This document shows positions 2,930 to 63,915 of a stretch of DNA of 64,000 nt, piece by piece (position 1 is the stretch's first letter; every line of letters starts with the position of its first letter). The notes under the pieces were generated by a model that saw nothing but the letters and a program-made list of their open reading frames with translations, ran no database searches and was not told the DNA's origin. This DNA comes from Phototrophicaceae bacterium (GTDB taxonomy: Bacteria > Chloroflexota > Anaerolineae > Aggregatilineales > Phototrophicaceae), in contig CBDCXQ010000001.1 of the NCBI GenBank assembly GCA_965223835.1, positions 606,845 to 670,844 of the forward strand, given 5' to 3'. A program made the translations under genes and the position numbers.

Positions 2930-3472
2930 CTATTCTTCACGGACCAGGTAAAGGCGATTGTCCTCGACCAGATAGAGCATGGGTGCGACCAGAGTCTTTG
3001 GGTAGCGATTGCGGAGTCGCTGTGCTTCAATCAGCACAAAGTCAATTTCGTTGCCAATCTCGAAAAGCGGCGCGAAGCTATAAAAATGATTTTCCGCCTG
3101 CTCATGGGTCCAACCAGCATTTTCGACCAGATTGTTGACGAATAAATCTTTGCGGGCGGCGAGGTTGACCATGCCACAGTTGTTGTGTCCAATCAGCGCA
3201 ATGGTGTTGACACCACCGACGGCGATGGCATAGGACACTTTGAACTCGCTGAAGCGCAGATTGGCGCCGCCAGAGCGAATAATATAGGAGAAATTATCCG
3301 GGATATGCAGGTGTTTGCGATGATCCATGCACATGCCCACCAGCAGTTCCGCCTGGGTATAGGTCGCAAATGGGCGGTCCAGGTTATGGTAGGCCAGCAA
3401 GCGCTCAATCGGGGTATCCCGGTATTGGGGAAAGATGTCAGCAACGCTTTCAACTGGGACTAAACGATCCAT
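2930..3472 (-). CDS. Beta-class carbonic anhydrase-like protein
   Basis: Zinc-ligand motifs CMDHR (CxDxR) and YAIAVGGVNTIALIGHNNCG (HxxC) are present. Start moved to ATG 3472 (MDRLVPV); the track start at 3556 looks like an extension. Confidence 0.65.
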   Translation of the reverse strand: MDRLVPVESVADIFPQYRDTPIERLLAYHNLDRPFATYTQAELLVGMCMDHRKHLHIPDNFSYIIRSGGANLRFSEFKVSYAIAVGGVNTIALIGHNNCGMVNLAARKDLFVNNLVENAGWTHEQAENHFYSFAPLFEIGNEIDFVLIEAQRLRNRYPKTLVAPMLYLVEDNRLYLVREE

Positions 3473-3501
3473 TACGAAATTACCTCTAAACAGTTTAAGC
3501 T

Positions 3502-4332
3502 TTATGTCGTTGTTGGTTGCTGAGTTGGCGAGACCAGATTGCGCACGGCGGCCCACTCAGCAAACCGCAGCATACCTGCTGTGAGCGCGACATACAAGCC
3601 CATTCCGCCAATTGCGGCAGCCACCAGCGCCGGATTCCACTCATGGACGAGCAGGCCGATGCCGATCGAAAGCGCCATGATCGCCACTGAGACCACAATC
3701 CGCATCCCGAACGCGACGGTCAAAACTACCGGATGGCGACCACTCACCGGCGGCAAAATACCCAGCACGACCGAGAGTGAACTATCGGCAACCGTAAAGG
3801 CCGTTATAACGATCAGCCCGACGATCAAGCGCGACGGGTTCGGCAGGTCCGGGTCACTGCCGATGAAATCCAGCCAGGTGACAACACCCAGGCGCAGCAC
3901 CAACACCATCACGTGATCGCCCCACAGTGAGCGTAGCGTCGCCCACCATTTGCCCTGCACGATCTGGCGGGCCGACATGTTGGTTAGCAATAGATTTTCC
4001 CAGGTGTGGCTTTCATATTCGCGGCTGATGCTGCGGGCCGCCAATGCCAGCGTAATCAACGTGACGACGATATAGAGCGCGAAGTTCATGATGAGCAGGC
4101 TGGTGACGCTTAGTTCGCCGATCATGTCCAACAGCGGTTCAGTAAACAGCTGCCCCAGATCAATGCGGAGCAATGCTGCGCCGATCAACACGACCGAGGC
4201 AATAAACGCCGGGACCAGCATCACGACGGCCAGCAAAATCCAGAACCAGCCGGAGCGACTGCTGCTTATCAGATGCCGCTGGTGCTTGAGTTCGGCGTGC
4301 ATCACCGGGTTGTCGATGGCGATCAAGGTCAC
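3502..4332 (-). CDS. ABC-2-type transporter permease-like membrane protein (orphan, no adjacent ATPase)
   Basis: About 6 hydrophobic segments and the ISREYESHTWENLLLTNMSARQIVQGKWWA block typical of ABC-2 permeases. The start is uncertain: GTG 4332 is preceded by GGGAG, and ATG 4301 is an alternative. The track start at 4485 would overlap the divergent TIR gene. Confidence 0.55.
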   Translation of the reverse strand: MTLIAIDNPVMHAELKHQRHLISSSRSGWFWILLAVVMLVPAFIASVVLIGAALLRIDLGQLFTEPLLDMIGELSVTSLLIMNFALYIVVTLITLALAARSISREYESHTWENLLLTNMSARQIVQGKWWATLRSLWGDHVMVLVLRLGVVTWLDFIGSDPDLPNPSRLIVGLIVITAFTVADSSLSVVLGILPPVSGRHPVVLTVAFGMRIVVSVAIMALSIGIGLLVHEWNPALVAAAIGGMGLYVALTAGMLRFAEWAAVRNLVSPTQQPTTT

Positions 4333-4434
4333 GATGTTGCTCCCTGTTTTTTCATTGGTTGTTCCCACTCCACTATACTGGCAGTTTGCACGAACCAAGT
4401 ATAAACGATGCGCAAAAGCCACTTTGTAAGTTGA

Positions 4435-4463
4435 TCGCCAGCCGAGTCGTTGCTGGTTATAAT
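4435..4463 (+). promoter_or_regulatory. Candidate sigma70-type promoter for the TIR-WD40 gene
   Basis: TCGCCA (4435-4440), 17-nt spacer, perfect TATAAT (4458-4463), about 35 nt upstream of ATG 4499. GAGGA lies 7 nt before the ATG. Confidence 0.35.
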
Positions 4464-4498
4464 TGCAACCGCCGTTCGACACCACTGAGGATCACCAC

Positions 4499-7471
4499 AT
4501 GACTGATGTGTTCATCTCCTATTCTCGTCAAGACGATGAATTTGCCAAACGCTTGACCAACGCCCTGAAGAAACAGGAACGCGATGTCTGGATTGACTGG
4601 GAGGACATCCCCCGCGCGGCAGACTGGCTCAACGAGATTTATGCCGGGGTCGAAAGCGCTGATACATTCTTATTCATCGTGACACAGCACTCGTTGACTA
4701 GCGAGATCTGCAATTACGAGGTCGCCCACGCCCGCAAACACAACAAACGCATCGTACCGCTCATTCGTCAGCGGATTGAAGGCGACCTTGAAGCGCTGGT
4801 TAAAGGCCAATGGATGGACACGACCTGGGAGCAAACGGCCCGCGAAAACTGGCAGCAGATCGGACACCTTAACTGGATTTTCTTCGAGGATGACGAGAAG
4901 TTTGATGTCGAATTTGCGGCGCTGACCGAAACGTTGCAAACCGACATCGAACATGTCAACTTGCATACCCGATTGCTGGTGCGGGCGCGTGAATGGGAAA
5001 GCCGAGATAAGAACGCCGGTTTTCTGCTTACTGGAGACGAGATAAGCAGCGCGGAAGATTGGCTGCAACTGGCTGAAGCTGGTAGCAAAACTCCTGAGCC
5101 GACTCAACTTCATTGTGATTACATCCAGCAGAGCCGAGCACGCGAACAGGCCGAAAAACGGCTCCTGCGCAACCTCCGTCGGACGACGATCATTGCCGTA
5201 GTGATAGGTGCCATTGCAATTATTGCGACGATTGCATCGTTTTTCCTGTTTCAGCTGTCGGAAGTTCAGCGGGCCGAGGCGGAACGGGCCCAGGCACTGG
5301 CGGAAGATCGTGGTAATCAGGCTTCCAGCGTAGCGCTGGCCGCCAATGCACGCAATCTTATCAATGACGCTGAAACCGGGCTGGGCCTGACACTGGCAAT
5401 TGCCGCTTATGAAACCTATGATCCGCCGCTCGCCGATGTGCAGCAAACTCTGGCACGCGCTATTTATGGTCCCAATGCTCTTTATCGTCTCAGCGAACAC
5501 ACAAAATCCGTGTTGGATGTCGCTTTCAACCCGGATGGTCGCACCGGCTACTCAGTGGCATCCGATGGCGCACTCATCTTCTGGGATCTAAATTCCGGGA
5601 CGATGCTCAACGAAGTCACCTTTGCCGACAATCTGGTCGCCAATAATGTAGCTGTCAGCCCGGACGGCACGCAACTGGTTGTTTCGCTATTTGACAATTC
5701 GTTGCGCCTGTTGGATGCGACGGAAGGTAGCGAGGTTGCCACCTTGACCGGGCATGATGACCTGGTTATGCAGGTGGTCTTCAGTCCTGATGGCAGCCGG
5801 TTGCTCTCCGGCGGGCTGGACCGTACCCTACGCCTGTGGGATGTGGCGACGGGTGAAGAACTGCAACGCATCGACAGCCCTGGCGCGATACTGAATCTGG
5901 CCTTTTCGCCGGATGGTCGGCTAGCGGTAACTGGTTCGGGTGACAGTATCCTCACTGGCTCTGAGTTTCAACGGGAAATTGACCGCACTGTACGGGTGTG
6001 GAACTTGCGGACCGGGTCGGAAATGCAAAAATTCACGCCCAACTCCGGGTTTGTGCGAGCTGTCGCCTTCAGCCCGGATGGCAGCAACGTAGTGGCGGGA
6101 ACCTGGAACTCAGGTGACAATGGGCGGTTGCACCTATGGGACATTACGTCGGGAGACAGGCAAAACATTTTTTTCGGGCACACGGACATCATTACCAATG
6201 TGGCTTTCAGCCCGGATGGTCAGCGTCTACTTTCAACTTCCTGGGACCGCTCTTTGCGCGTGTGGGACATCGCCACCAGCCTGGAAATCCAGCGTTTTCA
6301 AGGTCATCGGGACCGTGTGCTGTCGATGGCGCTGAGCGCGAATGGGGAATATGTTCTGACAGGCACGGGCAATGCCGGAAATGACGTACCTGACCCTGAC
6401 ATTGATCTGGCGGTTGATCAAGTTGTCTGGTTATGGGATCTGGAAAGCCGCGCGCAGATTCATCTGCTGGAAGGGCATGACGATTGGGTATGGGGTGTCG
6501 ATATCAGTCCCGATAGTATCCTGGCGGCATCGGGTTCCGGCCCCTTAAGGCCCCCGGCGCTCGATTCCAGTGTGCGCATCTGGGATGTCGCCACCGGGGA
6601 GCAAATTCGGCGACTGGGCGGACATACCGATACCGTGCATGCGGTACGCTTCAGCCCGGATGGGGCGCTACTGGCATCGGCCAGTTGGGATGATACGGTG
6701 CGCATCTGGGAGGTGGCAAGCGGCGACAGACTCATCACTTACGATAGGCACACCGACAATGTGCTCGGCGTAACCTTCAGTCACGATGGTGCAACCATTT
6801 TTTCAGCGTCCAGCGACAAGACCATTCACATGTGGGATGTCGCCTCAGGTGACGAGATCAAGCGCTTTGAGGGGCACACGGGCGCGGTTAACAGTGTCGA
6901 TCTCAGCTCGGATGGCATGCAGATCCTGACCGCTTCCGATGACCGCACCCTGCGTCTGTGGGATGTTGAGACTGGCGAACCGATCAGGCAATTCATCGGA
7001 CATTCCGACCGCATCAATGATGCGATTTTTAGCCCCGATGGCACGCGCCTGATATCCACCTCGTGGGATACTTCCGTGCGCGAATGGGATGTCGCTACGG
7101 GCGAGGAAATTCGCCAATATATCGGGCACAATGGTCCGGTGTTTGGTGTGGATTACAGCCCGGATGGTCGAATCGCAATGACGGCTTCGGCAGATCTGAC
7201 TATTCGCCTGTGGAACACAGCAACCGGCCTCGAGATTCGGCGGTTCGAAGGACATACCAACTGGATACTCAGTGTGTTGTTCAGCCCGGATGGTAACTTC
7301 GCTGTGTCCGGCGCGGAAGATAATACCGTTCGCTCATGGCGTGTGGAAAGCACACTGGACGGTCTGGTGGCGTGGGCGCATAATAACCGCTACGTCCCGG
7401 AACTAACCTGCGCTCAACGTGAACTCTATAATGTTGAGCCATTGTGCCAGGAATATACCGTGGCATCCTGA
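4499..7471 (+). CDS. TIR domain / single TM helix / 14x WD40-repeat protein
   Basis: N-terminal MTDVFISYSRQDDEFAKRL...ADTFLFIVTQHSLTSEICNYEVAHARKHNKRIVPL is a TIR_2-like domain with a conserved Glu. The TM segment is RRTTIIAVVIGAIAIIATIASFFLF. I counted 14 repeats of the form (F/V)SPDG...(L/V)R(L/V/I)WD, and the Cys-pair tail ELTCAQRELYNVEPLC follows. Confidence 0.9.
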   Translation: MTDVFISYSRQDDEFAKRLTNALKKQERDVWIDWEDIPRAADWLNEIYAGVESADTFLFIVTQHSLTSEICNYEVAHARKHNKRIVPLIRQRIEGDLEALVKGQWMDTTWEQTARENWQQIGHLNWIFFEDDEKFDVEFAALTETLQTDIEHVNLHTRLLVRAREWESRDKNAGFLLTGDEISSAEDWLQLAEAGSKTPEPTQLHCDYIQQSRAREQAEKRLLRNLRRTTIIAVVIGAIAIIATIASFFLFQLSEVQRAEAERAQALAEDRGNQASSVALAANARNLINDAETGLGLTLAIAAYETYDPPLADVQQTLARAIYGPNALYRLSEHTKSVLDVAFNPDGRTGYSVASDGALIFWDLNSGTMLNEVTFADNLVANNVAVSPDGTQLVVSLFDNSLRLLDATEGSEVATLTGHDDLVMQVVFSPDGSRLLSGGLDRTLRLWDVATGEELQRIDSPGAILNLAFSPDGRLAVTGSGDSILTGSEFQREIDRTVRVWNLRTGSEMQKFTPNSGFVRAVAFSPDGSNVVAGTWNSGDNGRLHLWDITSGDRQNIFFGHTDIITNVAFSPDGQRLLSTSWDRSLRVWDIATSLEIQRFQGHRDRVLSMALSANGEYVLTGTGNAGNDVPDPDIDLAVDQVVWLWDLESRAQIHLLEGHDDWVWGVDISPDSILAASGSGPLRPPALDSSVRIWDVATGEQIRRLGGHTDTVHAVRFSPDGALLASASWDDTVRIWEVASGDRLITYDRHTDNVLGVTFSHDGATIFSASSDKTIHMWDVASGDEIKRFEGHTGAVNSVDLSSDGMQILTASDDRTLRLWDVETGEPIRQFIGHSDRINDAIFSPDGTRLISTSWDTSVREWDVATGEEIRQYIGHNGPVFGVDYSPDGRIAMTASADLTIRLWNTATGLEIRRFEGHTNWILSVLFSPDGNFAVSGAEDNTVRSWRVESTLDGLVAWAHNNRYVPELTCAQRELYNVEPLCQEYTVAS

Positions 7472-50096: not shown

Positions 50097-52004
50097 ATGC
50101 ATCAATATCGAAGACTGCTTCATTGGTGGTTAATTATTCCGTTAATGCTTTTCGTAGCTACAGTTGGAGTAATGAACTTAGACAGTGATCACATCTGGAT
50201 TGATGAGCTATCTTCAATTGGCAATATCGGCTGGCTGGCCGGGGACCAATACAATCCGATAGAGGTTATCCAATCGGTTGCTGCCAAAAGCCCGGCGCAT
50301 CTTCCTGGTTATTTTATCTTATTAAGTATATGGTCTACTTTTACCGGGTGGTCACCGTTTACACTGCGGGCGTTCTCGCTGTTGCTGGGTTTGCTTGCTA
50401 TAGCCGTCACCTATCAATGTGGCCGTGTGTGGCTGCCGAAACGCACTGGCTTGTATCCAGCCCTTGTGATCGGGTGGAGCGCATATTTCATTTACTATAC
50501 GCATGAATTGCGTATGTATACGCAGTTAGCATTCTTTGTAGCCCTGACGTTATGGGTATATGGTCGAGTTGTCTGGCAAAAACAGCATTCAACGCTGAAC
50601 TGGCTCCTGCTGTTTTCCAGTACACTCGGATTGATCTACACCCATGTTTTTGGGCTGCTGTTGGTGGCGAGTATCGGTATCTATCATTTGATTGTTGAAG
50701 CTAAGAATCGGCATTGGCTTTATGTAGCGGTTGTGATGGGCAGTGCCGGGATGCTCTTTTTACCCTGGTTGACCGTATTATTGTATGGGGCTGAGCGCAA
50801 TGCTGGTTGGATTCCGCGCAATTCTACGCTAAGTCCGATTGGTATTTTACAGACCCAACTTCGGCTGTTCAGCAATGATCAGACTGGCTTCATGCTGATT
50901 ATGGTCGCTCTGGCAATTGTCGGTTTATTTATTTTCCAGCGGTCAGCCTACCGACTGTGGCTGATTTTTATCATAACATTTGTAATCGTGGTCATTTTCA
51001 ATGTCATTATGCCATCGCTGCCCCCAGGACGGGTGCGTTATCTGATGATTTTCTGGCCGTTATTAGCTCTGTTGGTTGGTCTCGGCCTAGAAACTATCCA
51101 GCAGCTTGGCTCGGTTCGGTGGGCATTAGCTGTATTGACCTTATGGTTAGCATTTGGCGTTGCAACCTTTAGCGATCCGGAAGCTCAACCCCAGAAATCT
51201 AGTGTTCGATCCAGCCGGTTCCCACCATTTAATCGCATCATTAGCGCCATGAAGCCCATAGCATTCTCCAATGATTTGCTCATCAGCTTTTCTGATACAA
51301 ATGCTTATGAGCCTGGGAAATTTAATAGCATAGGCGAGTTTTATCTGGGACCGCTCGCGGGTGATCTCAATTTGGTGCGACTGGATAAAGTTTTGGCGGA
51401 TGATGATGAGCAGCAGCTTTTACTCGATAAGATCGGTTCTCGGGTGACTGTGTGGCTTGTTTCAGAACCGGACCTGGCGCCTGATGTTGTCGACCTTTAC
51501 CGGGAAACCATGACCCAGGATTTTACTTTGTGTGATGTACCAATAGACGATAGTGAACTGCGCATCGAACGTTATGATATTGATTGGTTCGAGTGTGCGA
51601 GTCGGGTGCTACCATCTGAGACTTTAGCTAAATTTGGAGCGGACATCACCCTGCACGACATCAAATTGTTTTCTAGAGTGGATAACCGATTAGAGATTGC
51701 CAGCGCCTGGTCAGTTGGGGATTCAATTCCACCGGAGACCTTTTCGGTTTCGTTCAAGTTGTGGCAAGATGGACCCGACCATTTGGCCCTGACCGATTTC
51801 GGCTTGCGGTATCCGGGTGAAAGCTGGTACAGCGCTACTATGTTGTCCGATAATTTAGCAAATGGAACTTATCGCCTGACAGTGACCGTCTACAATTGGA
51901 AAACTGGCGAACGGTTAGCCGGTGTTTATGGTGATGTGGTTGCGAGCGAAATCCCTGTTATGGAATTTCGGCTACCGCTTGATGAGGTGTTTCGGGCTGG
52001 TTGA
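50097..52004 (+). CDS. GT-C fold membrane glycosyltransferase, paralog B (low GC)
   Basis: First-loop motif HIWIDELSSIGNIG, then HLPGYFILLSIW and YTHELRMYTQLAF. The C-terminal soluble domain ends in GTYRLTVTVYNWKTGERL. Confidence 0.65.
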   Translation: MHQYRRLLHWWLIIPLMLFVATVGVMNLDSDHIWIDELSSIGNIGWLAGDQYNPIEVIQSVAAKSPAHLPGYFILLSIWSTFTGWSPFTLRAFSLLLGLLAIAVTYQCGRVWLPKRTGLYPALVIGWSAYFIYYTHELRMYTQLAFFVALTLWVYGRVVWQKQHSTLNWLLLFSSTLGLIYTHVFGLLLVASIGIYHLIVEAKNRHWLYVAVVMGSAGMLFLPWLTVLLYGAERNAGWIPRNSTLSPIGILQTQLRLFSNDQTGFMLIMVALAIVGLFIFQRSAYRLWLIFIITFVIVVIFNVIMPSLPPGRVRYLMIFWPLLALLVGLGLETIQQLGSVRWALAVLTLWLAFGVATFSDPEAQPQKSSVRSSRFPPFNRIISAMKPIAFSNDLLISFSDTNAYEPGKFNSIGEFYLGPLAGDLNLVRLDKVLADDDEQQLLLDKIGSRVTVWLVSEPDLAPDVVDLYRETMTQDFTLCDVPIDDSELRIERYDIDWFECASRVLPSETLAKFGADITLHDIKLFSRVDNRLEIASAWSVGDSIPPETFSVSFKLWQDGPDHLALTDFGLRYPGESWYSATMLSDNLANGTYRLTVTVYNWKTGERLAGVYGDVVASEIPVMEFRLPLDEVFRAG

Positions 52005-52058
52005 TGATTATACAGATCCGTAATAGTAATTCGGTTAAAAAACCGTGCTGAATGTTGA

Positions 52059-53921
52059 TTGATGTCTTTCTATGAGCGAAATTCCTGGTTGTGGTTGATA
52101 CCGGCATTGCTGTTGGTCACGGGCCTGGCAGCACGCAATTTGAACGATTTGCTTTGGGTGGACGAAGTGTTCTCCATTGGCAATATCGGTGGGTATCAGG
52201 GACCACCCTATAATCCGGCGCAAGTGTGGGAAGCGCTCAGTCAGAATAGCCCGCAGCATGTCCCCGGCTACTTTTTCTTGCTGAGTGGCTGGGCGGGGTT
52301 GGTGGGCTGGACACCACTGGCATTACGGACGTTTTCGTTGTTCTGGGGCTTGCTGGCGATAGTCTGGACGTATCGTGTTGGCACGGATTGGGCCGGATCC
52401 CAGGTGGGCCTGTTTGCCGCCTTCATTCTGAGCAGCAGCGCGTTTTTCATCCACTTTATGCACGAACTTCGCATGTACTCGTTGCTGGCGTTCCTGACAA
52501 TTTTCACCATCTGGATTTATTGGCGGGTTGTCACACGAATCGGCCCCGTGCGTCGCTGGGAATGGCTGACATTATTTGGCGGTGCGCTGGCACTACTTTA
52601 TTCGCAATTGTTCGGCGCGATTCCATTGGGGGCGATTGGCTTCTATCACCTGCTGTTCGTGCGCAAAGACCGGCGCTGGTGGCTGGTCGCCGTGTTGCTG
52701 GGGGTCGTCGGCGCCTCCCTGCTGCCCTGGGTGCAGGTTTTGCTGCAGGGGGTCAGAAATATTGGTCTGGCGGAAACGCCGCTGGCAGTCCCGGCAATTT
52801 TCGCAGCGCTGGTGCATTTGTTTGGTAACGGCAATGGGGTGCTGGTGGGGGTGTTGGCATTGGCCGGGGTGCTGGCTTGGCGATGGCAGGGCGCACGAGC
52901 TATCTGGTTTTTTGTGCTTGTGACCTTTGTCCTGACCCTGATTGCGAACGAAATTCGCCCCATGATTAGTACGGGTCGCACGCGTTACTTGATCCATCTC
53001 TGGCCGCTGCTGGCGCTGTTGTGTGGGCTGGGGCTGGCGTGGTTGGCTCGGCGGCGCTGGTTGGCGGCTTTGCTGCTGGGGGCATGGCTGGTCGTCGGCC
53101 TCAACAACACGCTGGACCCGAATTTCATGATTGAGAGCGATGGTCCCCGTTATGTAAAGGATTACCCACCGTTGCGCACCATCATGGCAGAAGTTAACCC
53201 GCGCGCCACGCCCGATGATCTGCTGGTCGTTTTCTCGCGTCAGTGGCATGTCTTTAACTTGTTCCGCTTTTTTACGATTGGTGAATATCATTTACAGCCG
53301 TTGCGCAGCGCCGATTACTTCATTACTCTGCCAGAAACCCGCGCAGCGGAAGTCATCCGGGATGAACTGCGGACCGCGCTTGGTACCCGCCTGACGGTGT
53401 GGCTGGCCTATGAACCCCAGATTCCGGCGGCAGAATTGACTCGCTACCGGGACATTCTGAGTGAAGATTATAATTGGTGTGCGACGCCGGTTGAGCGTCC
53501 AGATCTCACGATTGAGCGCTATGGACTGGCAAGCATTGGGTGCCTGGACCCGACTACGCGTGATGCGGTTTTGCTGAATTATCCGTCGGGGATTCAACTC
53601 CATGCGGTTGAACACGCCGTTGCCGACGAGCTTCAAGTTGCGTTGAGTTGGTCCGTTGCTGAGACGGTACCGGTGAATACCTATTCGGTCTCGCTCAAAC
53701 TGTGGGATACCGCCGATAATTTTGTTGCGCAACGCGATGTGAGTTTGCCAGCCGCCGGCTCGCAGTGGCAACTGGTGACGATGACAATTGAAGAGTTGCC
53801 GGCGGGCGATTATACCTTGACGCTCGTTGTCTATGATTGGGCAACGGGTGAACGCCTCGTGGCACAGGGGGCGGCAGCGCAGAGCGCGGAACTGCCCGTG
53901 AGCAGTGTCAAACTCTCATGA
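52059..53921 (+). CDS. GT-C fold membrane glycosyltransferase, paralog C (high GC)
   Basis: LLWVDEVFSIGNIGG, HVPGYFFLLSGW and FMHELRMYSLLAF. The C-terminal domain has YSVSLKLWD and GDYTLTLVVYDWATGERL. Confidence 0.65.
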   Translation: MMSFYERNSWLWLIPALLLVTGLAARNLNDLLWVDEVFSIGNIGGYQGPPYNPAQVWEALSQNSPQHVPGYFFLLSGWAGLVGWTPLALRTFSLFWGLLAIVWTYRVGTDWAGSQVGLFAAFILSSSAFFIHFMHELRMYSLLAFLTIFTIWIYWRVVTRIGPVRRWEWLTLFGGALALLYSQLFGAIPLGAIGFYHLLFVRKDRRWWLVAVLLGVVGASLLPWVQVLLQGVRNIGLAETPLAVPAIFAALVHLFGNGNGVLVGVLALAGVLAWRWQGARAIWFFVLVTFVLTLIANEIRPMISTGRTRYLIHLWPLLALLCGLGLAWLARRRWLAALLLGAWLVVGLNNTLDPNFMIESDGPRYVKDYPPLRTIMAEVNPRATPDDLLVVFSRQWHVFNLFRFFTIGEYHLQPLRSADYFITLPETRAAEVIRDELRTALGTRLTVWLAYEPQIPAAELTRYRDILSEDYNWCATPVERPDLTIERYGLASIGCLDPTTRDAVLLNYPSGIQLHAVEHAVADELQVALSWSVAETVPVNTYSVSLKLWDTADNFVAQRDVSLPAAGSQWQLVTMTIEELPAGDYTLTLVVYDWATGERLVAQGAAAQSAELPVSSVKLS

Positions 53922-55753
53922 CAACAGGGGGAAGTCGCTGGTTCTGGCTGCTGCCCGTGCTGCTATTGGCTACCGGATTGGCGGCACACAATCTGCAAAC
54001 CGATGCTTACAGCCCCGACGAAGCTGCTTCGATGATTGTTGCCGGGGGTGCGCATTATGGCCCGTTTACACTGGCACAGGCCTGGCAGCGAGTCGCCGAA
54101 CATTCGCCCGATCAAGCCGTGGGGTTGGCGCTGGTGTTGTCAAGCTGGGGGCGGCTGGTGGGCTGGAGCGAGTTGGCGACGCGCAGCCTCGCCTTGTTTG
54201 CCGGGCTTTTGACGATTGCGCTGGTGTATCGCATCGGCACTGATCTGTTCACCCCGTTCGCCGGGTTCAGCGCAGCGCTCGTGCTGGCGACCTCTACCTA
54301 TTTCTTGACCTACATGCATATCATCCGGGTGTTTACGCTGGCCGCCTTGATGGTTTCCCTGACGTTATGGTGTTATTGGCGGGTGATGCTGGCCGCCCGA
54401 CCGCCCGGTTGGTTGCCACAATTAGGTCTATTCGTGGGTGGGGTTGGCCTGTTTTATACGCACTATTTTGCGACGCTATTTGTTGGTGCACTCGGTATCT
54501 ATCACCTGCTGCTCGCGCCGCGGTCACGCTGGTGGTGGCGCACGATATGGCTTTTCCTGCTGGTGTTGATTCTCTTCCTGCCGGAACTGCGCATCTTTAT
54601 CAGCGGTTACGCGCGGAATCTCGACAATGTACAGGCCGCCGCGCTCGGTCCGGGTCAGACGGTGCAGCAGCTTGTTTATGTTTTTACGAATGACTTGCCG
54701 GTTCAAATACCCGCTGCTTCCGTCTGGCTAAGCATGCCGCTGGCCTTCGTTGTGATTTATCTGCGACGCCGCACACCCAATCTAAGTCTGTTAATGGTTT
54801 TGCTGCTGGTTTTGCTGGGGTTGATTATTGGTGCGAATCAAATCGTGCGGTTGGTGACGCCCGGGCGCATCCGGTATCTCATGCCGTTGTGGCCGCTGCT
54901 GGCGCTGTTGTTGGGCGTGGTCATCGGGTGGTTGGCGCGTCAACGGCGCTGGTTGGGCATGGGTTTCATAGGCGTGTGGCTGTTATTTGGGTTGTGGACT
55001 TACCTGACAACGCCCTTCGCCTATCAACTGGACGAATTTTCTCGTTACCCGTTGCATCACTTTCAGGTAGAGTGGCAGCAATTTGCCAGCCCAGACGATT
55101 TGCTGGTCATTCATGGTTTGGGTTATGGCAATGGCCGTCCGCGTGACTTGTATACTGGTGATGTACCCCAGCGTATCATCCTGCGTGAAGGCCATACCCT
55201 GGAGCACCTGACTGAAACCTTCAACGGGTTCCAGCGCATCTGGACTCTGGTGCAATCAAGGCCAGAACTGTTAACCCGTTCTGACTATCAGGCAGTGGCA
55301 ACTATCCTTGAACGCGACTTCGTTCACTGTTATCAACCCGTGAAGCAGAATCAATTGCAGGTTGATCTCTATGCACGCTTCGCTGCTTTTTGCCCGACTG
55401 AGAATGACTTATGGCAGTTTGGGACGCGTATCGCGATCACTGGTATGGAATCGTTGGTGGTTGACGACAACCGCTTGATGATCCGAATCGGTTGGTCGGT
55501 TGATCGTGATGTCCCCCAAGAATCATATTCCGTTGCCCTGCATTTGTACCAGGGGGCTGAATTTATATTGGCGGCTGACTATGGCTTGCCGTCCGCACCG
55601 TTTGGTGCCGCCGAGTCGCTGGTCGACATCAGCAGCCTGTCACCCGGTAGCTACGCTGTCAGGGTCGGCGTCTACGATTGGGCGACGCTCCAACATCAAT
55701 ACACCGATACGGGTAGTGCCTTCGTCGAATTAGCAACAATAACGCTCCCCTGA
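53918..55753 (+). CDS. GT-C fold membrane glycosyltransferase, paralog D (high GC)
   Basis: AYSPDEAASMIVAGG. The C-terminal domain has YSVALHLYQ and GSYAVRVGVYDWAT. ATGA overlap with paralog C. Confidence 0.6.
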   Translation: MTTGGSRWFWLLPVLLLATGLAAHNLQTDAYSPDEAASMIVAGGAHYGPFTLAQAWQRVAEHSPDQAVGLALVLSSWGRLVGWSELATRSLALFAGLLTIALVYRIGTDLFTPFAGFSAALVLATSTYFLTYMHIIRVFTLAALMVSLTLWCYWRVMLAARPPGWLPQLGLFVGGVGLFYTHYFATLFVGALGIYHLLLAPRSRWWWRTIWLFLLVLILFLPELRIFISGYARNLDNVQAAALGPGQTVQQLVYVFTNDLPVQIPAASVWLSMPLAFVVIYLRRRTPNLSLLMVLLLVLLGLIIGANQIVRLVTPGRIRYLMPLWPLLALLLGVVIGWLARQRRWLGMGFIGVWLLFGLWTYLTTPFAYQLDEFSRYPLHHFQVEWQQFASPDDLLVIHGLGYGNGRPRDLYTGDVPQRIILREGHTLEHLTETFNGFQRIWTLVQSRPELLTRSDYQAVATILERDFVHCYQPVKQNQLQVDLYARFAAFCPTENDLWQFGTRIAITGMESLVVDDNRLMIRIGWSVDRDVPQESYSVALHLYQGAEFILAADYGLPSAPFGAAESLVDISSLSPGSYAVRVGVYDWATLQHQYTDTGSAFVELATITLP

Positions 55754-60233: not shown

Positions 60234-60995
60234 ATGAAATTAATCAGGATTGTTATCCTTATTGCTTTGCTGACTGCAGCCTGCCAGCCCGATGCGACGT
60301 CGCAGGAATTGCCAACGCTGGCGGTGCTGCCGTCGTTGACGCCCTCAAGCGAGCCAGATGCCCCCACGGCAGAGCCAACCATCGCGCCGCCCACCAACAC
60401 GGTTATTGTGCCGTCCGCCACCGTGACGATTTTGCGGCCAACGGATGTTCCGCAGCCGACTGTGACGCCGCGCCGCACCGCCACGATAGACCCGACCCAG
60501 GCGGCTGCGGTGGCGCTCACGGCTGCGGTTGATCAAGCGCCACGCATCATTACGCTGACGCCGAATCCTGCTGGCAATGAAGGGCCACCCCAGGTGCTGG
60601 CCGATGTCGTCATTACCGAGAGTCAATTTCAGTCTCAGGTTAACGCCGCGATTGCCGACATATCCAGCATCGAACAGGCCTTCGTCGATTTTCAACCGGA
60701 TGGCATCTACGTGGATTTGACGGCGCTGGGTGGTCAGGCTTATATTGCCGGTCGGGTCCAGCTTGACTTGGAACTCGCCGGGGGCTTCGTGGCGATCACA
60801 GTTGGCGAAATTGAAACCAATGCGGCGGAAGTTCCCGAAGGCTATCTGCTGGTTGTGAATGGTGAATTCTTTGCCATGATGATTGATGTACTCGACACGA
60901 TTTTGAACGAGCGCGTTGGCGAGGAAAATGATCTGGAAAACCTTATTCTCACTGATGCGGCGCTGGAAGTCTTCCTGCTCATTCCTGAACAGTAG
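60234..60995 (+). CDS. Lipoprotein, hypothetical
   Basis: Lipobox LIALLTAAC, a Pro/Thr-rich linker and an unrecognised C-terminal domain. Confidence 0.55.
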   Translation: MKLIRIVILIALLTAACQPDATSQELPTLAVLPSLTPSSEPDAPTAEPTIAPPTNTVIVPSATVTILRPTDVPQPTVTPRRTATIDPTQAAAVALTAAVDQAPRIITLTPNPAGNEGPPQVLADVVITESQFQSQVNAAIADISSIEQAFVDFQPDGIYVDLTALGGQAYIAGRVQLDLELAGGFVAITVGEIETNAAEVPEGYLLVVNGEFFAMMIDVLDTILNERVGEENDLENLILTDAALEVFLLIPEQ

Positions 60996-61066: not shown

Positions 61067-63628
61067 ATGACCACCAATGATGTGTTTATCTCATACCGGC
61101 GCAAGGATGCGGCTTTTGTCAAACAACTGGCGGCGGCATTCACGACTCAAGGGCACGATGTGTGGGTGGATTGGGAAGATATTCCGCCCGGTGTGAGTGA
61201 TTTCACACGTGAGATTGGCCTGGGCATTGAAGGTGCCAATACGTTTATTGCGGTCCTGAGTCCCGATTTTTTGGAATCCGAATATTGCCTGAATGAATTG
61301 CAATATGCGACCGATCTCAACAAGCGCATCATCCCCATTGTCCATCGTCCGGTCGATGATCGGTCTATTCCCGAAGCCGTTCGAACCATAAACTGGGTCT
61401 ATTTTATCCCCCATGCTGGTCAGTCCAACGAGTTTCCAACGGCATTCAAGGCGCTGCAACAGGCCATCAACACTGATTATGATTACCTGCGCGAACATAC
61501 CCGGTTGCTGACCCGTGCCCGCAATTGGGCGACGGCAGACCGTGATGCCAGCTTCCTGATTTCCGGTGCGGAATTATCTGCTGCTGAAAACTGGTTAGTC
61601 GGCGCCGCCCAGCATACACCACCACCGGCTACTATTCATTCGGAATTTATCCTGCAAAGTCGCCAAGCTCAGACGCGGCGGCAACGGCGGTTGCTCAGTG
61701 GGGCTGTAGTATTACTGTTACTGGCGCTGGTGGGGCTGGTGGTGGCGGTGTTAGGTGGTCTGGAAGCCCGGCGACAGCAGATCATTGCCGAACGCCGTGC
61801 CGACGAGTTGTTGAGTCTGGCGGCGGCCAGTGCGGCTGAAGAAGCCGTTGCGGCGGGTGAACGTTTTACCGGTTTACGACTGGCCCACTTTGCTGGCACA
61901 TTTATCGAGCAGCCACCGGCACAGGTGCAACAGACGCTGCAACAGATCGCCTACCAGCCCGGCGCGCGCTACGCATTTTTCGATGATGTCCCGGCAGATC
62001 ACAGCCTGTATGCCGGTTTGCAACCGGGCGACACCGTGCGCAGTTCAGACCAGAGTGGCACCTATCTGGTCGCAGACGATGATGACCTGCTCACCGTGCG
62101 TAATGCCGACGATCAAATTTTGCTGCGCTTACACAAGCTCTATCGACCGGTTGGCTTTCCATTGCGCGAGTATGATCCGGCCATCCACCCAGCAGTGCTT
62201 GAACGTTATGCCGACAGTGCGCCGCCGCTGGCCCTCAGCCCCGATCAAGCATTTGTCGCCGTGGGTGGGGAAAGCGTATTTCGCATCGTCAGCAATGACG
62301 AATCGGCTGGCGAACTTCAGATACTGGACGGGCACACTTTGCCAGTCGATGGCGTCCGTTACAGCGCGGATGGTCGCTATCTGGTTTCACGGGCTTCGGC
62401 GGATACGCTGATTAACGAATCGCGGATCGATAAGGAATTCTTTGTCTGGGACATGAGCACGGGGCAGGCTATTTTTCAGTTGGATAAATTCCAGCGTAGT
62501 CGTGACCTGTTTGCCATTGCTGAGGATGGGGTTCATCTGCTGTTTATCGAGGATTCGCCACCCGGTTACACCCTCTGGGATGTCCGAGATAGCCGTTTGC
62601 TGGTGAATTTCGCCGGGAGCTTTGGCCCGGTGATGGAGGTATCGTTTACCCCCGATGGTGACCATCTCATCGCGGCATCGGTCGCGACGCTACGGATGCG
62701 TCCGCCGCGCGAGTATAAAGTCTATGATCTGGCGGGCAATCTGATTAATCAATTTGGCGGGATTGAGAGCAATCATATCATTGATGCGCCGCTGCTCTTC
62801 AGCCCTGATGGTACCGCCGCGTACATTATCGACAACGATGGGCGAATCATTGAAACGGATGTCCTGACCGGTGCCGAGACCGTCATTGGCAGTTTGCCGA
62901 ATACCAACGTCGAAGGCAAAAGCGCCAATGGTCAGTTTGTCGCGATTCGCGATTATGAAAACGATGGGATGATTATCTGGGATCTGCAAACGGGTGAAGC
63001 ACTAACGAATTTCAGCGCTGCCGATATTGGTTTTACGTCGCTCATTAGCAATGATGGGCGCTTCGTTGCGTCCAGTATCTTCAATGACAACGGCCTGGCA
63101 GAACTGGTCGTGTATGATTTGGCCGTGGGGGCAGCAGCAACCTGGTTTGAAGACTATGCTGGTGAGTCCGGTTTTGTTGGGGCCATCGCCTTTGCCTTCA
63201 GCCCGGATTCCGAGCAACTGCTATATGTGGATAATCAGAGTAATGTGCGTGTAGTGCAAACGGGAACCTGGGAAATACAAACGCTGATGCGTGGGGTGCC
63301 GGGTCGCGTGTCAGATTTGAAGATGAGCACGGACCAACGATTAATCGCCGTTGCTGGTGAAGCCGGTACCGTTGTTGTTTGGGATGCCGACACCGGCAGC
63401 TTATTGCAGCGCCTCGAAGGGGCGGGGGCCGTTTCCAAGCTGAGTATTGCGCCTGATGGAACGACGTTGTTGACGGGTGATGAGCGTGGTCAAATACGTC
63501 TGTGGCGGTTGTCAGGGACCGGCGATGTACTCACTTGGTTGGCGGACAATCGGGCGTTGATGCCCATTACCTGCGACGATTTACTCCAGGCAATTGTGAT
63601 CGTGTCACTGGCAACCTGCCCACTGTGA
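61067..63628 (+). CDS. TIR domain / single TM helix / degenerate WD40-like beta-propeller protein (paralog of 4499-7471)
   Basis: MTTNDVFISYRRKDAAFVKQL...ANTFIAVLSPDFLESEYCLNELQYATDLNKRIIPI. The shared linker is HTRLLTRARNWA..FLISGAELSAAENWL. The TM segment is LLSGAVVLLLLALVGLVVAVLGGL. Repeats end in FVWD, TLWD, IIWD, VVWD and IRLWR, and the tail carries a Cys pair. Confidence 0.85.
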   Translation: MTTNDVFISYRRKDAAFVKQLAAAFTTQGHDVWVDWEDIPPGVSDFTREIGLGIEGANTFIAVLSPDFLESEYCLNELQYATDLNKRIIPIVHRPVDDRSIPEAVRTINWVYFIPHAGQSNEFPTAFKALQQAINTDYDYLREHTRLLTRARNWATADRDASFLISGAELSAAENWLVGAAQHTPPPATIHSEFILQSRQAQTRRQRRLLSGAVVLLLLALVGLVVAVLGGLEARRQQIIAERRADELLSLAAASAAEEAVAAGERFTGLRLAHFAGTFIEQPPAQVQQTLQQIAYQPGARYAFFDDVPADHSLYAGLQPGDTVRSSDQSGTYLVADDDDLLTVRNADDQILLRLHKLYRPVGFPLREYDPAIHPAVLERYADSAPPLALSPDQAFVAVGGESVFRIVSNDESAGELQILDGHTLPVDGVRYSADGRYLVSRASADTLINESRIDKEFFVWDMSTGQAIFQLDKFQRSRDLFAIAEDGVHLLFIEDSPPGYTLWDVRDSRLLVNFAGSFGPVMEVSFTPDGDHLIAASVATLRMRPPREYKVYDLAGNLINQFGGIESNHIIDAPLLFSPDGTAAYIIDNDGRIIETDVLTGAETVIGSLPNTNVEGKSANGQFVAIRDYENDGMIIWDLQTGEALTNFSAADIGFTSLISNDGRFVASSIFNDNGLAELVVYDLAVGAAATWFEDYAGESGFVGAIAFAFSPDSEQLLYVDNQSNVRVVQTGTWEIQTLMRGVPGRVSDLKMSTDQRLIAVAGEAGTVVVWDADTGSLLQRLEGAGAVSKLSIAPDGTTLLTGDERGQIRLWRLSGTGDVLTWLADNRALMPITCDDLLQAIVIVSLATCPL

Positions 63629-63648: not shown

Positions 63649-63915
63649 TCAAATTATCTGCTCGCCGGGTCGTAGCGTCTTTTTGCGGTCAATCACCAAG
63701 TCTTTTTCGCTGTTATAGATGCCATCCATGTAGGGCTGATTGCCGATGATGTGCGCATCCAGTTCTGCAATCAAATAAACCAATTCGCCCGCCTGCACCT
63801 GACGGAACCGTAAGTCAACATACTCGTCTGGGGTCTGGTCGTCACCCCAATAGGGTTTGACATTGACAAGTTGTTGCTCATCGTCGCGTTGCGCACGGCG
63901 TACATTGATGGACAT
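63649..63915 (-). CDS. Short ORF resembling only the N-terminal part of a GNAT acetyltransferase (possible truncated remnant)
   Basis: MSINVRRAQRDDEQQL...GELVYLIAELDAHIIGN looks like GNAT beta1-beta3. The ORF stops at 88 aa, 20 nt from the TIR gene stop, and I saw no continuation in other frames. Confidence 0.3.
   Translation of the reverse strand: MSINVRRAQRDDEQQLVNVKPYWGDDQTPDEYVDLRFRQVQAGELVYLIAELDAHIIGNQPYMDGIYNSEKDLVIDRKKTLRPGEQII

Follow-up and report, generated by a model that had tools for sequence, protein, structure and literature searches.

Layout of the Gene

The stretch of DNA analysed here (64,000 nucleotides, hereafter the window) contains two genes in which a TIR domain is joined through a hydrophobic segment to a large C-terminal repeat region. 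The gene at 61067..63628 raises the question of what such a protein does, on which side of the membrane its repeats lie, and whether the pair reflects an expansion in which the sensor diversifies while the TIR effector is conserved, as the original prediction held. The ORF listing of the window gives this gene (P0001, + strand) an intact reading frame of 853 aa, and in the orthologue alignment 15/15 orthologues begin at most two residues from the same ATG. A promoter and terminator scan returned matches no more numerous than in shuffled sequence. The features of P0001 and of its paralogue P0002 are as follows:

61067..63628, + strand: whole gene P0001, with TIR, helical extension, TM helix, juxtamembrane helices, β-propeller region and Cys-pair tail
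61076..61420, + strand: TIR domain, residues 4–118 (PF13676, E 2.6e-26)
61421..61681, + strand: helical extension, residues 119–205, 87 aa (profile of 55 copies)
61682..61762, + strand: single transmembrane helix, residues ~206–232 (hydropathy, flank charge, predicted helix)
61763..61960, + strand: juxtamembrane helical region, extracytoplasmic by predicted topology, residues 233–298 (predicted helices)
61961..63508, + strand: β-propeller region, residues 299–814, ~515 aa (Pfam, AlphaFold model, Foldseek)
63509..63628, + strand: C-terminal tail, residues 815–853, two short helices and a Cys pair (orthologue alignment)
4499..7471, + strand: paralogue P0002, 990 aa, same architecture with canonical WD40 repeats (Pfam, BLASTP)

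The domain order (TIR, linker, TM, propeller, Cys tail) is the same in both genes, as had been predicted. P0001 is predicted to be a single-pass membrane protein with the TIR inside the cell and a large β-propeller outside. The bacterial family to which it belongs is very large and laid out like a receptor kinase, with a TIR as the output; within it P0001 is an old and well-conserved member.

The TIR Domain and Its Helical Extension

The Pfam family TIR_2 (PF13676) matched residues 6–114 of P0001 (E 2.6e-26; 92.9 bits, cut-off 28), and PF01582 was above its cut-off too (31.7 bits vs 21.3). Glu77, encoded by 61295–61297, is in the catalytic position and is the sole invariant Glu of FLESEYCLNELQYA (residues 68–81) in an alignment of 56 family members, bearing out the TIR with a conserved Glu that had been predicted. 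A BB-loop-like motif, WEDIPPG, occupies residues 36–42, and the alignments showed that its D-I-P-P-G core is invariant in the family and that an aromatic residue is found at −4 from Glu77. Residues S9, Y10, R12, W33, D35, D38, I39, P40, E77, K86, P90 and N109 are invariant in the 56 members. Sequence matches in the PDB were confined to residues 3–109 and included 7uxr, TRR-2, PdTIR (3h16), Cat1, SARM1 and TLR1/2/6. In gap-free alignments Glu77, which lies in SPDFLESEYCLNEL, falls on the Glu of motifs of the SENFVKSEWCKYEL type and likewise on that of S..F..S.WC..EL, the motif seen in TLR2 and bacterial TIRs. P0001 has the feature of enzymatic TIRs, a conserved catalytic Glu in the α-C helix motif, and from this invariant Glu and the BB loop its TIR is predicted to be of the NAD-cleaving type. 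TIR domains that retain the Glu can also serve as scaffolds.

The TIR is followed by a region with predicted helices at 123–135, 138–156 and 168–182, in which H144, W154 and P185 are invariant. The linker signature noted in the original prediction is indeed present in both window genes (HTRLLTRARNWATADRDASFLISGAELSAAENWL and HTRLLVRAREWESRDKNAGFLLTGDEISSAEDWL), with a basic stretch after each, and P0001 contains the family form of the signature after the TIR, HT(R)LL.RA..W ... G..L..AE.WL ... P.P. Its description as a linker did not stand. No Pfam family matched residues 119–205 and no solved relative was found in the PDB, where the sole match was at chance level (RpoD, E 0.23). A profile made from 55 copies (A3, with residues 119–205 of P0001 as its first row) matched 7,649 cluster representatives. 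The copy number of the extension equalled that of TIR_2 in 9/9 proteins sampled, and the TIR-extension unit is arrayed one to seven times per protein among relatives, some of which have two to seven units in tandem in one chain. This TIR subfamily has the “linker” as an obligate extension, which is part of the repeated TIR unit and not a spacer.

Membrane Topology

P0001 has exactly one strongly hydrophobic segment (~206–236), in agreement with the single TM helix originally predicted. The best 19-residue window starts at residue 214 (mean Kyte-Doolittle 3.05) and the TM helix (~206–232), a 27-residue run of L, V, A and G, is a portion of one continuous predicted helix, 189–262. P0002 has a single hydrophobic segment at ~225–257, and exactly one TM segment, at a conserved position, was found in 116/121 relatives. 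The charges flanking the helix of P0001 are +5/0 on the TIR side and +4/−4 on the opposite side (net +5 vs 0), and the corresponding net charges in P0002 are +5 and −2. (The bias in P0001 is modest; the outer flank bears four Arg as well.) The protein lacks an N-terminal signal sequence, its TIR starting at residue 4, and the TM helix comes directly after the last TIR unit and is followed by the C-terminal sensor domain. In the juxtamembrane region, predicted helices run up to 262 and then span 266–278 and 285–295; this region is 64% identical among orthologues and 40% identical to P0002.

In other members of the family, CHASE2, dCache, FGE-sulfatase, TPR or DUF1080 takes the propeller's place after the same TIR-extension-TM module. 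CHASE2 and dCache are classic extracytoplasmic sensor domains. Based on the missing signal sequence, the single TM helix, the charge bias, the CHASE2 and dCache relatives, the domains shared with the periplasmic parts of receptor kinases and the Cys pair of the tail, we infer a type II (N-in) topology for P0001, with the TIR and its extension in the cytoplasm and the propeller and tail outside. It is very unlikely that the orientation is reversed, with the TIR outside, or that the protein spans no membrane and its hydrophobic helix is buried in the core. The four Arg on the outer flank would be compatible with such arrangements, but a folded N-terminal domain of 205 residues without a signal peptide would not be expected to be exported, NAD+ is cytoplasmic, the hydrophobic stretch is that of a typical TM helix, kept in position in the 116 relatives, and in the CHASE2 and dCache relatives whatever is C-terminal to the helix has to lie outside.

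The Propeller and the C-Terminal Tail

WD40-type families matched the C-terminal region of P0001 weakly, PF00400 scoring 64.8 bits against a cut-off of 27. A single stretch passed in P0001, compared to 13 in P0002, so that the term “degenerate” originally applied to the repeats was a fair one. The AlphaFold model, with a mean pLDDT of 88, has 43 strands between residues 299 and 814, and its best Foldseek matches, with probability 1.00, were tandem WD40 propellers, among them 2ymu (E 3e-26), Pwp2 and Aip1. PkwA also matched (TM 0.75). The profile match and the predicted fold are both those of a WD40 β-propeller, as had been anticipated, and the model suggests a propeller of about 11–12 blades made from degenerate WD40 repeats. 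Motifs conserved in the 15 orthologues include SPPGYTLWDVRDSR (497–510) and TLRMRPPR (541–548).

The tail contains the predicted Cys pair, Cys836 (codon 63572–63574) and Cys851 (codon 63617–63619). The protein has no other Cys outside the TIR, and neither of the two varies among the 15 orthologues. Exactly two Cys are found within the last 45 residues in 82 of 121 relatives, and the family tail consensus is W...NR....LTC...........C. The pair may be structural without forming a disulfide.

Orthologues and Selection

The 15 orthologues are all 836–861 aa long and are 40–64% identical across related Anaerolineae, with a mean column identity of 66%. The TIR is 70% identical among them and the propeller (ectodomain) 52%, and the ectodomain retains many invariant residues. 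Values of dN/dS were obtained from orthologue pairs at 82–92% identity; the window paralogues, at 27%, are saturated at synonymous sites. In six such pairs the region-wide dN/dS was 0.18–0.26 for the ectodomain and 0.07–0.24 for the cytoplasmic portion, so that every value is far below 1. The ectodomain value was at most about three times the cytoplasmic one, and the two were equal in one clade. Every part of P0001 is under purifying selection. Since dN/dS is 0.07–0.26 across the domains and the orthologues are all of such similar length, P0001 is a functional gene, and it belongs to a stable orthologue group, not to a set of fast-diverging duplicates.

These data also bear on whether P0001 could be a decaying, non-functional paralogue in which the WD40 repeats degenerated through drift after duplication. 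Such a history would account for one WD40 stretch passing in P0001 against 13 in P0002. However, it is highly improbable considering the intact frame, the 15 full-length orthologues in which Glu77 and the Cys pair are invariant, the dN/dS of ~0.2, and the confidently predicted fold.

Paralogues in the Same Genome

P0001 and P0002 are homologous over their full length (BLASTP E 4e-63, 27% identity over 885 columns). The per-domain alignment gave 42–44% identity for TIR plus linker (44% for the linker), 40% for the juxtamembrane region, 27–28% for the propeller and ~30% for the tail. Thus, two parts of the original prediction, homology outside the TIR and non-uniform conservation between the domains, were upheld. 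A tblastn search of the 64-kb window with TIR plus linker found only these two copies. A third copy, P0289, lies elsewhere in the genome, which carries at least three family members. The expansion that had been predicted is real in this sense, but it is neither recent nor local: in a tree of residues 1–300, P0001 and P0002 fall on opposite sides of the family, and several branches with strong support, as well as many proteins of other organisms, come between them. The two are ancient paralogues.

Between P0002 and P0289 the gradient is reversed, the TIR being 48% and the ectodomain 79% identical in a gap-free alignment, so that a conserved effector with a diverging sensor is not the rule in this family. 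Because of this reversal, P0002 appears to be a mosaic relative to P0289, indicating that modules are shuffled at the membrane boundary.

Diversifying selection on the propeller with a conserved TIR effector, the reading originally given to the two window genes, is therefore improbable. The identity gradient between P0001 and P0002, the similar one among the orthologues and a dN/dS of ~0.5 for region 301–385 in one clade are consistent with it. However, the average dN/dS of the ectodomain is low in 6/6 pairs and at most about three times that of the cytoplasmic part, many ectodomain residues are invariant, the window genes are widely separated on the tree, and P0002 and P0289 show the opposite gradient.

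Gene Neighbourhood and Distribution

A single 8-residue pattern recovered 504 loci of the family in species-representative genomes. Its distribution centres on filamentous Chloroflexota and Cyanobacteria, with several copies per genome. No partner gene was conserved across the window and 8 orthologue loci, and each genome examined has different neighbours (nusA-infB-truB-ribF; glyoxalase and peptidase M20; 2-oxoacid dehydrogenase and PIG-L). The context in the window and in the orthologue loci examined points to no ligand. The gene is surrounded by housekeeping genes, not by a defence island, in the window as well as at two further orthologue loci. One orthologue (L084) is located in a defence-like setting, flanked by a methyltransferase/Mrr-type gene and a TIR-NACHT-FGE-sulfatase gene. 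A literature search found no published study of TIR-TM-WD40 or TIR-TM-CHASE2 proteins.

Comparison with Known Systems

The PknD protein of M. tuberculosis is a receptor kinase with an extracellular β-propeller. Single-span receptor Ser/Thr kinases with WD40, TPR, FGE-sulfatase and DUF1080 domains predicted to be periplasmic are found in Planctomycetota, and receptor kinases with such domains in Planctomycetota and Myxobacteria (PMC11032199). P0001 resembles these kinases in its N-in type II layout, with a cytoplasmic catalytic output, one TM helix and, outside, a sensor of repeats or a propeller at the C-terminus; the interchangeable ectodomains are the same set as in the relatives of P0001, and both families expand via duplication and recombination. 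It differs from them in its output, a TIR with its own helical extension. There was no Pkinase match in Pfam, and P0001 shares only layout and ectodomain set with the receptor kinases without being one of them.

Animal Toll-like and IL-1 receptors likewise combine an ectodomain sensor, a single TM helix and a cytoplasmic TIR, and their activation by dimerisation or clustering is the logic proposed here for P0001. The box motifs of the P0001 TIR (FISY; the D..PG BB loop; S..F..S.(W/Y)C..EL) align with the TIRs of TLR1, TLR2 and TLR6. Unlike these receptors, P0001 has the opposite polarity (N-terminal TIR, type II) and a WD40 propeller instead of LRR or Ig domains, keeps the Glu found in enzymatic TIRs, and has no adaptor cascade. 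The likeness is one of layout, and common descent of the whole architecture is not claimed; membership among the animal TLRs or IL-1Rs is ruled out by the N-terminal TIR, the absent signal peptide and the propeller ectodomain.

With AbTir, BtTir, SARM1, TIR-SAVED/Cap, SPARTA TIR-APAZ and Thoeris ThsB, P0001 shares a TIR_2-type domain with a Glu in the catalytic position. Its best PADLOC/NCBIfam matches were to the TIR parts of SAVED-TIR, ThsB, Aga TIR and ThcB4, spanning residues 3–114 only and far below the family cut-offs (37 bits vs 220 for ThcB4). With this score, and with no conserved neighbour in the window and 8 orthologue loci, Thoeris of any type was rejected. A recent systematic survey of Thoeris by Yirmiya et al. 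set standalone TIR proteins aside (10.64898/2025.12.03.692087). P0001 differs from the NAD-cleaving effectors listed above in being membrane-anchored, with a predicted external sensor, and no SAVED, Argonaute, ThsA-type or other effector gene is near it.

TIR-STAND/NLR-type proteins (Avs, bNACHT) also have an N-terminal TIR and C-terminal WD40 repeats as the presumed sensor. Kaur and colleagues, in eLife in 2020 and 2021, are said to have described such proteins with WD40 or TPR sensors among the “conflict systems” of multicellular bacteria, and enrichment in filamentous Cyanobacteria and Chloroflexota is common to them and to the P0001 family. In P0001, however, the 87-aa extension and the TM helix lie between the TIR and the repeats, and the predicted location of the sensor is extracytoplasmic. 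Assignment to the STAND/NLR type (Avs, NACHT, NB-ARC) was rejected: Pfam, NCBIfam and PADLOC gave no match to an NTPase family, and the 87 residues in between are helical and lack a P-loop. Finally, the relatives with CHASE2 or dCache after the TIR-extension-TM module resemble known CHASE2 and Cache receptors, the outputs of which are kinases, cyclases, GGDEF domains and similar; no TIR output for such receptors was described in the literature searched.

Proposed Mechanism

On balance, P0001 is probably an outside-in receptor in which clustering switches on a cytoplasmic TIR NADase. The TIR and its extension would reside in the cytoplasm and one long helix would span the membrane, leaving the juxtamembrane helices, the tandem propeller (~11–12 blades) and the Cys-pair tail facing the periplasm or cell surface. 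The propeller would bind a ligand at the level of the envelope or outside the cell, and ligand-driven clustering or reorientation of the receptors would bring the TIR units together. Their self-association would form a composite active site that cleaves NAD+, resulting in NAD+ depletion or a cADPR-type product. TIR–TIR contact is required for activity in SARM1, AbTir, plant TIRs and TIR-SAVED. The tandem arrays of two to seven TIR units fit this need for contact, so that members with a single TIR, such as P0001, would need receptor clustering. We infer all of the topology, the NADase activity, the activation by clustering and the purpose of P0001, be it defence and cell suicide or envelope and cell–cell signalling.

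The same receptor might instead use its TIR as a signal generator or scaffold in ordinary physiology and not as an NAD-depleting suicide or defence effector, for example in envelope stress sensing, cell–cell communication within filaments or nutrient sensing, with a product or partner that acts on unlinked genes. The stable orthology, the purifying selection and the housekeeping setting make P0001 resemble a physiological sensor more than a typical fast-moving defence gene; the concentration of the family in filamentous Chloroflexota and Cyanobacteria and the ectodomain set common to receptor kinases also agree with such a role. Nevertheless, we consider it rather unlikely, since no linked receiver gene was found, neither the catalytic Glu nor the BB loop varies, as in NADase TIRs, the L084 orthologue is in a defence-like setting, and conflict systems typically have multiple copies per genome and shuffled modules.

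To our knowledge, the bacterial TIR systems characterised so far all sense intracellular events. Returning to the clustering receptor, we tentatively propose, as a possibility somewhat short of an even chance, that [TIR+extension]n-TM-sensor proteins are a large overlooked class of bacterial outside-in receptors. Their ectodomains would be the receptor Ser/Thr kinase set (WD40, TPR, FGE-sulfatase, DUF1080) plus CHASE2 and dCache, and an extracytoplasmic cue would be converted by TIR clustering into cytoplasmic NAD+ cleavage or a cADPR-type signal, in a prokaryotic counterpart of Toll-like-receptor logic whose halves are reshuffled at the membrane boundary to give new pairings. The family is large, judging by the loci recovered with one short pattern and the cluster representatives of the TIR-extension unit, and the mosaic P0002 points to exchange of effector and sensor halves. 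If the proposal is correct, TIR signalling would reach as far as the cell envelope, through an enzyme coupled across the membrane to a sensor outside, and P0001 would offer a tractable one-protein model of how engagement of an ectodomain turns on a TIR.

The P0001 Gene and Its Predicted Fold

The gene under study encodes P0001, a paralogue of the first TIR–propeller protein in the window, P0002 (4499–7471, +, 990 residues):

61067–63628, +, P0001 open reading frame, intact, 853 residues

Pfam assigned residues 6–114 of P0001 to TIR_2 (E 2.6e-26; 92.9 bits with a cut-off of 28) and gave many weak WD40-type propeller matches over residues ≈390–830, where the WD40 repeat family scored 64.8 bits in a single passing stretch; 13 WD40 stretches passed in P0002. 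Each protein has one strongly hydrophobic segment, whose TIR-side flank is enriched in basic residues; the maximum in P0001 is a 19-residue window starting at residue 214 (mean Kyte–Doolittle hydropathy 3.05). C836 and C851 are the sole cysteines of P0001 outside the TIR domain. In BLASTP, P0001 and P0002 aligned from residue 5 through the last blades (E 4e-63, 27% identity), and a tblastn search of the window found TIR+linker copies in these two genes only. All of the elements listed in the original prediction (TIR, linker signature, transmembrane (TM) helix, degenerate propeller and Cys pair) are thus present in P0001; the gene is real and had been correctly described.

An AlphaFold2 model of P0001, built on a 56-sequence family alignment, had a mean pLDDT of 88.1 and a pTM of 0.67. 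It consists of a TIR α/β unit (residues 4–118) followed by helices at 123–135, 138–156 and 168–182, an unbroken helix (189–262) that holds the hydrophobic segment, two further helices, 43 β-strands within residues 299–814, estimated to form ≈11–12 four-stranded blades, and two short C-terminal helices. The top PDB matches in Foldseek were tandem WD40 propellers, including 2ymu from Nostoc (E 3e-26), Pwp2/Utp proteins and Aip1, and the bacterial PkwA WD40 domain matched with a target-normalised TM score of 0.75. The C-terminal region is accordingly predicted to be a propeller, as had been proposed.

Family Size and the Repeated TIR Unit

A search for the 8-residue pattern W[VI]DWEDIP in collections with one genome per species yielded 504 confirmed loci. 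Anaerolineae, Aggregatilineales, Phototrophicaceae and filamentous Cyanobacteria supplied most of the 80 best, and 11 assemblies contributed more than one of these (two or three). In three loci fetched from other genomes, two family genes of the TIR-TM-sensor type lie ≈3 kb apart, so such tandem arrangements occur:

L039, genes at 3361 and 6124
L044, genes at 3334 and 6401
L045, genes at 489 and 3328

The present genome holds at least three family members, since a match to residues 1–330 of P0002, the 972-residue protein P0289, is encoded in the same genome outside the window and adds to P0001 and P0002.

The linker (residues 119–205 of P0001) also occurs in long cyanobacterial relatives, in which three tandem TIR+linker copies precede the TM helix. 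A profile built from 55 linker segments had no relative among solved structures; it matched 7,649 cluster representatives (clustering at 50% identity), of which 5,644 reached E ≤ 1e-10, and single proteins held as many as 7 copies. Linker and TIR_2 counts were equal in all nine proteins sampled (7/7, 6/6, 5/5, 4/4, 3/3 in four proteins, and 2/2). Because copy number tracks TIR_2 number throughout this sample, the linker is a helical extension, obligate in this TIR subfamily and C-terminal to the TIR domain, and not a juxtamembrane spacer.

Sensor Slot and Topology

Exactly one hydrophobic helix follows the TIR unit or units in 116 of 121 relatives. Beyond it lie WD40, CHASE2, dCache, FGE-sulfatase, TPR or DUF1080 domains, or alternatively an uncharacterised domain of ≈300 residues and a second TM helix. 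CHASE2 and dCache are well known as sensor domains located outside the cytoplasm. The WD40, TPR, FGE-sulfatase and DUF1080 domains found in this slot are the same set that has been reported as periplasmic in the single-span receptor Ser/Thr kinases of Planctomycetota (PMC11032199). The slot is therefore modular and is predicted to be extracytoplasmic, with the TIR inside and the propeller outside. This orientation is supported by the absence of a signal peptide from P0001, by the agreeing charge bias, and by the location of the conserved Cys pair on the proposed outer side.

Divergence, Selection and Age of the Paralogues

A search of 5.8 billion proteins identified 15 full-length relatives of P0001 (836–861 residues, 40–64% identity), one of which is from an Anaerolineaceae MAG. 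The mean column identity of the orthologue alignment was 66%, and every part contained invariant positions, including Glu77 in the TIR, H144, W154 and P185 in the linker, and both tail cysteines; the ectodomain contained the long conserved motifs SPPGYTLWDVRDSR and TLRMRPPR. By tblastn, locus L005 of an uncultured Chloroflexia MAG (3001–5560) encodes a full-length orthologue with 65% identity over residues 3–853. The protein on record that probably corresponds to this locus, P0016, has only 594 residues, suggesting that the gene call was cut short or that the assembly carries a frameshift. Two mangrove metagenome runs (X5 and X6) contained 6–9% of the sampled 31-mers of the P0001 gene, a hint of close relatives in mangrove sediment, and four runs of "organism A" contained 82–100% of its sampled words.

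Identity by part (mean pairwise among P0001 orthologues; P0001 vs. P0002)
TIR: 0.70; 0.42
Linker: 0.63; 0.44
TM: 0.75; 0.07
Juxtamembrane helices: 0.64; 0.40
Residues 301–385: 0.43; 0.20
Propeller: 0.52; 0.28
Tail: 0.53; 0.32

The original prediction saw in the more diverged sensor the pattern expected under diversifying selection. The gradient in identity bore out the faster divergence, but not selection of this kind at the level of domains: Nei–Gojobori dN/dS, calculated per part from the coding DNA of six orthologues in two clusters at 82–92% identity, was 0.07–0.24 for the cytoplasmic part and 0.18–0.26 for the ectodomain, and only residues 301–385 reached ≈0.5, in one of the two clusters. 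The P0001 sensor is under clear purifying selection.

In a maximum-likelihood tree of residues 1–300, the P0001 orthologues formed one clade (support 100/99). P0002 fell on the opposite side of the tree, with several strongly supported branches between, and many proteins from other organisms were nearer to P0001 than P0002 was. P0001 and P0002 are old paralogues.

P0289 and P0002 are 70% identical overall, with 0.48 identity in the TIR, 0.51 in the extension and 0.47 in the TM helix, versus 0.81 in the juxtamembrane helices and 0.79 in the propellers over 625 ungapped columns. The gradient in this pair runs opposite to a conserved effector and diverging sensor, which consequently does not hold as a family rule; with purifying selection and old paralogues as well, most of the evolutionary interpretation first offered was not supported. 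The cytoplasmic half of P0002 instead shows 63–69% identity to proteins whose ectodomains are quite different, being FGE-sulfatase or other WD40 types, a similarity that ends just past the TM helix. P0316, from the same MAG as one P0001 orthologue, is a full-length, uniformly conserved orthologue of P0289. P0002 is a mosaic, most simply explained by the exchange, at the membrane boundary, of an entire half (cytoplasmic or sensor) or by gene conversion confined to the ectodomain.

Gene Neighborhoods

Upstream of the P0001 gene are 2-oxoacid dehydrogenase E1/E2 genes, a PIG-L deacetylase gene and a lipoprotein-like ORF, and a convergent ORF follows:

60234–60995, +, lipoprotein-like ORF, 253 residues, 71 bp upstream of the P0001 gene; N-terminus MKLIRIVILIALLTAAC, Pro/Thr-rich stretch
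63649–63915, −, convergent ORF, 88 residues, ending 20 nt from the P0001 stop codon

The lipoprotein-like ORF had no Pfam match and was absent beside the P0001 orthologues examined; the convergent ORF matched no Pfam family at E ≤ 0.001. Elsewhere in the window (50097–55753, +), there are three tandem paralogous genes (611–635 residues), each with a weak match to PMT_2, a GT-C glycosyltransferase family.

The neighbors of the orthologues vary: nusA-infB-rbfA-truB-ribF upstream, glyoxalase and peptidase M20 genes on either side, or other unrelated genes. The sole defence-like neighborhood among the orthologue loci is L084 (696–2459 and 8534–8580), where the orthologue P0005 lies between an N6_N4_Mtase/Mrr_cat gene and a TIR_2-NACHT-FGE-sulfatase gene. 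Since no partner gene is conserved in the window or the orthologue loci examined, P0001 is a one-protein system that lacks the defining feature of Thoeris, and membership of Thoeris was ruled out. PADLOC and NCBIfam matches were confined to the TIR part and were far under the family thresholds.

Proposed Mechanism

Glu77 lies within an S..F..S.(W/Y)C..EL motif common to TLR2 and bacterial NADase TIRs, and a D-I-P-P-G BB-loop-like motif is invariant in the family. For SARM1, plant TIRs, AbTir and TIR-SAVED it is established that TIR domains build their active site jointly, at the contacts through which they associate. The 2–7 tandem TIR units of some relatives fit such a requirement, and P0001 and other members with a single TIR would depend on receptor clustering for TIR–TIR contact. 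Because of these motifs, the known association requirement and the tandem arrays, we propose NAD+ cleavage activated by clustering: a ligand bound by the external propeller would cluster or reorient the receptors, the continuous helix 189–262 and the helical extension would relay the change to the TIRs, which, once assembled, would cleave NAD+. The outcome would be either NAD+ depletion, for suicide or defence, or a diffusible signal. Some evidence, namely the stable orthology and the housekeeping surroundings, favors a physiological sensor; other evidence (the presence of several copies, module shuffling and the phyletic distribution) favors a conflict system.

The Thoeris-related survey by Yirmiya et al. 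excluded standalone TIR proteins (10.64898/2025.12.03.692087), and our full-text literature searches found no study of the TIR-TM-propeller architecture. P0001 belongs to a large receptor-like TIR family for which these searches found no published study, and within it P0001 is both conserved and ancient. It is a second example and not a new kind, and the family is worth experiments.
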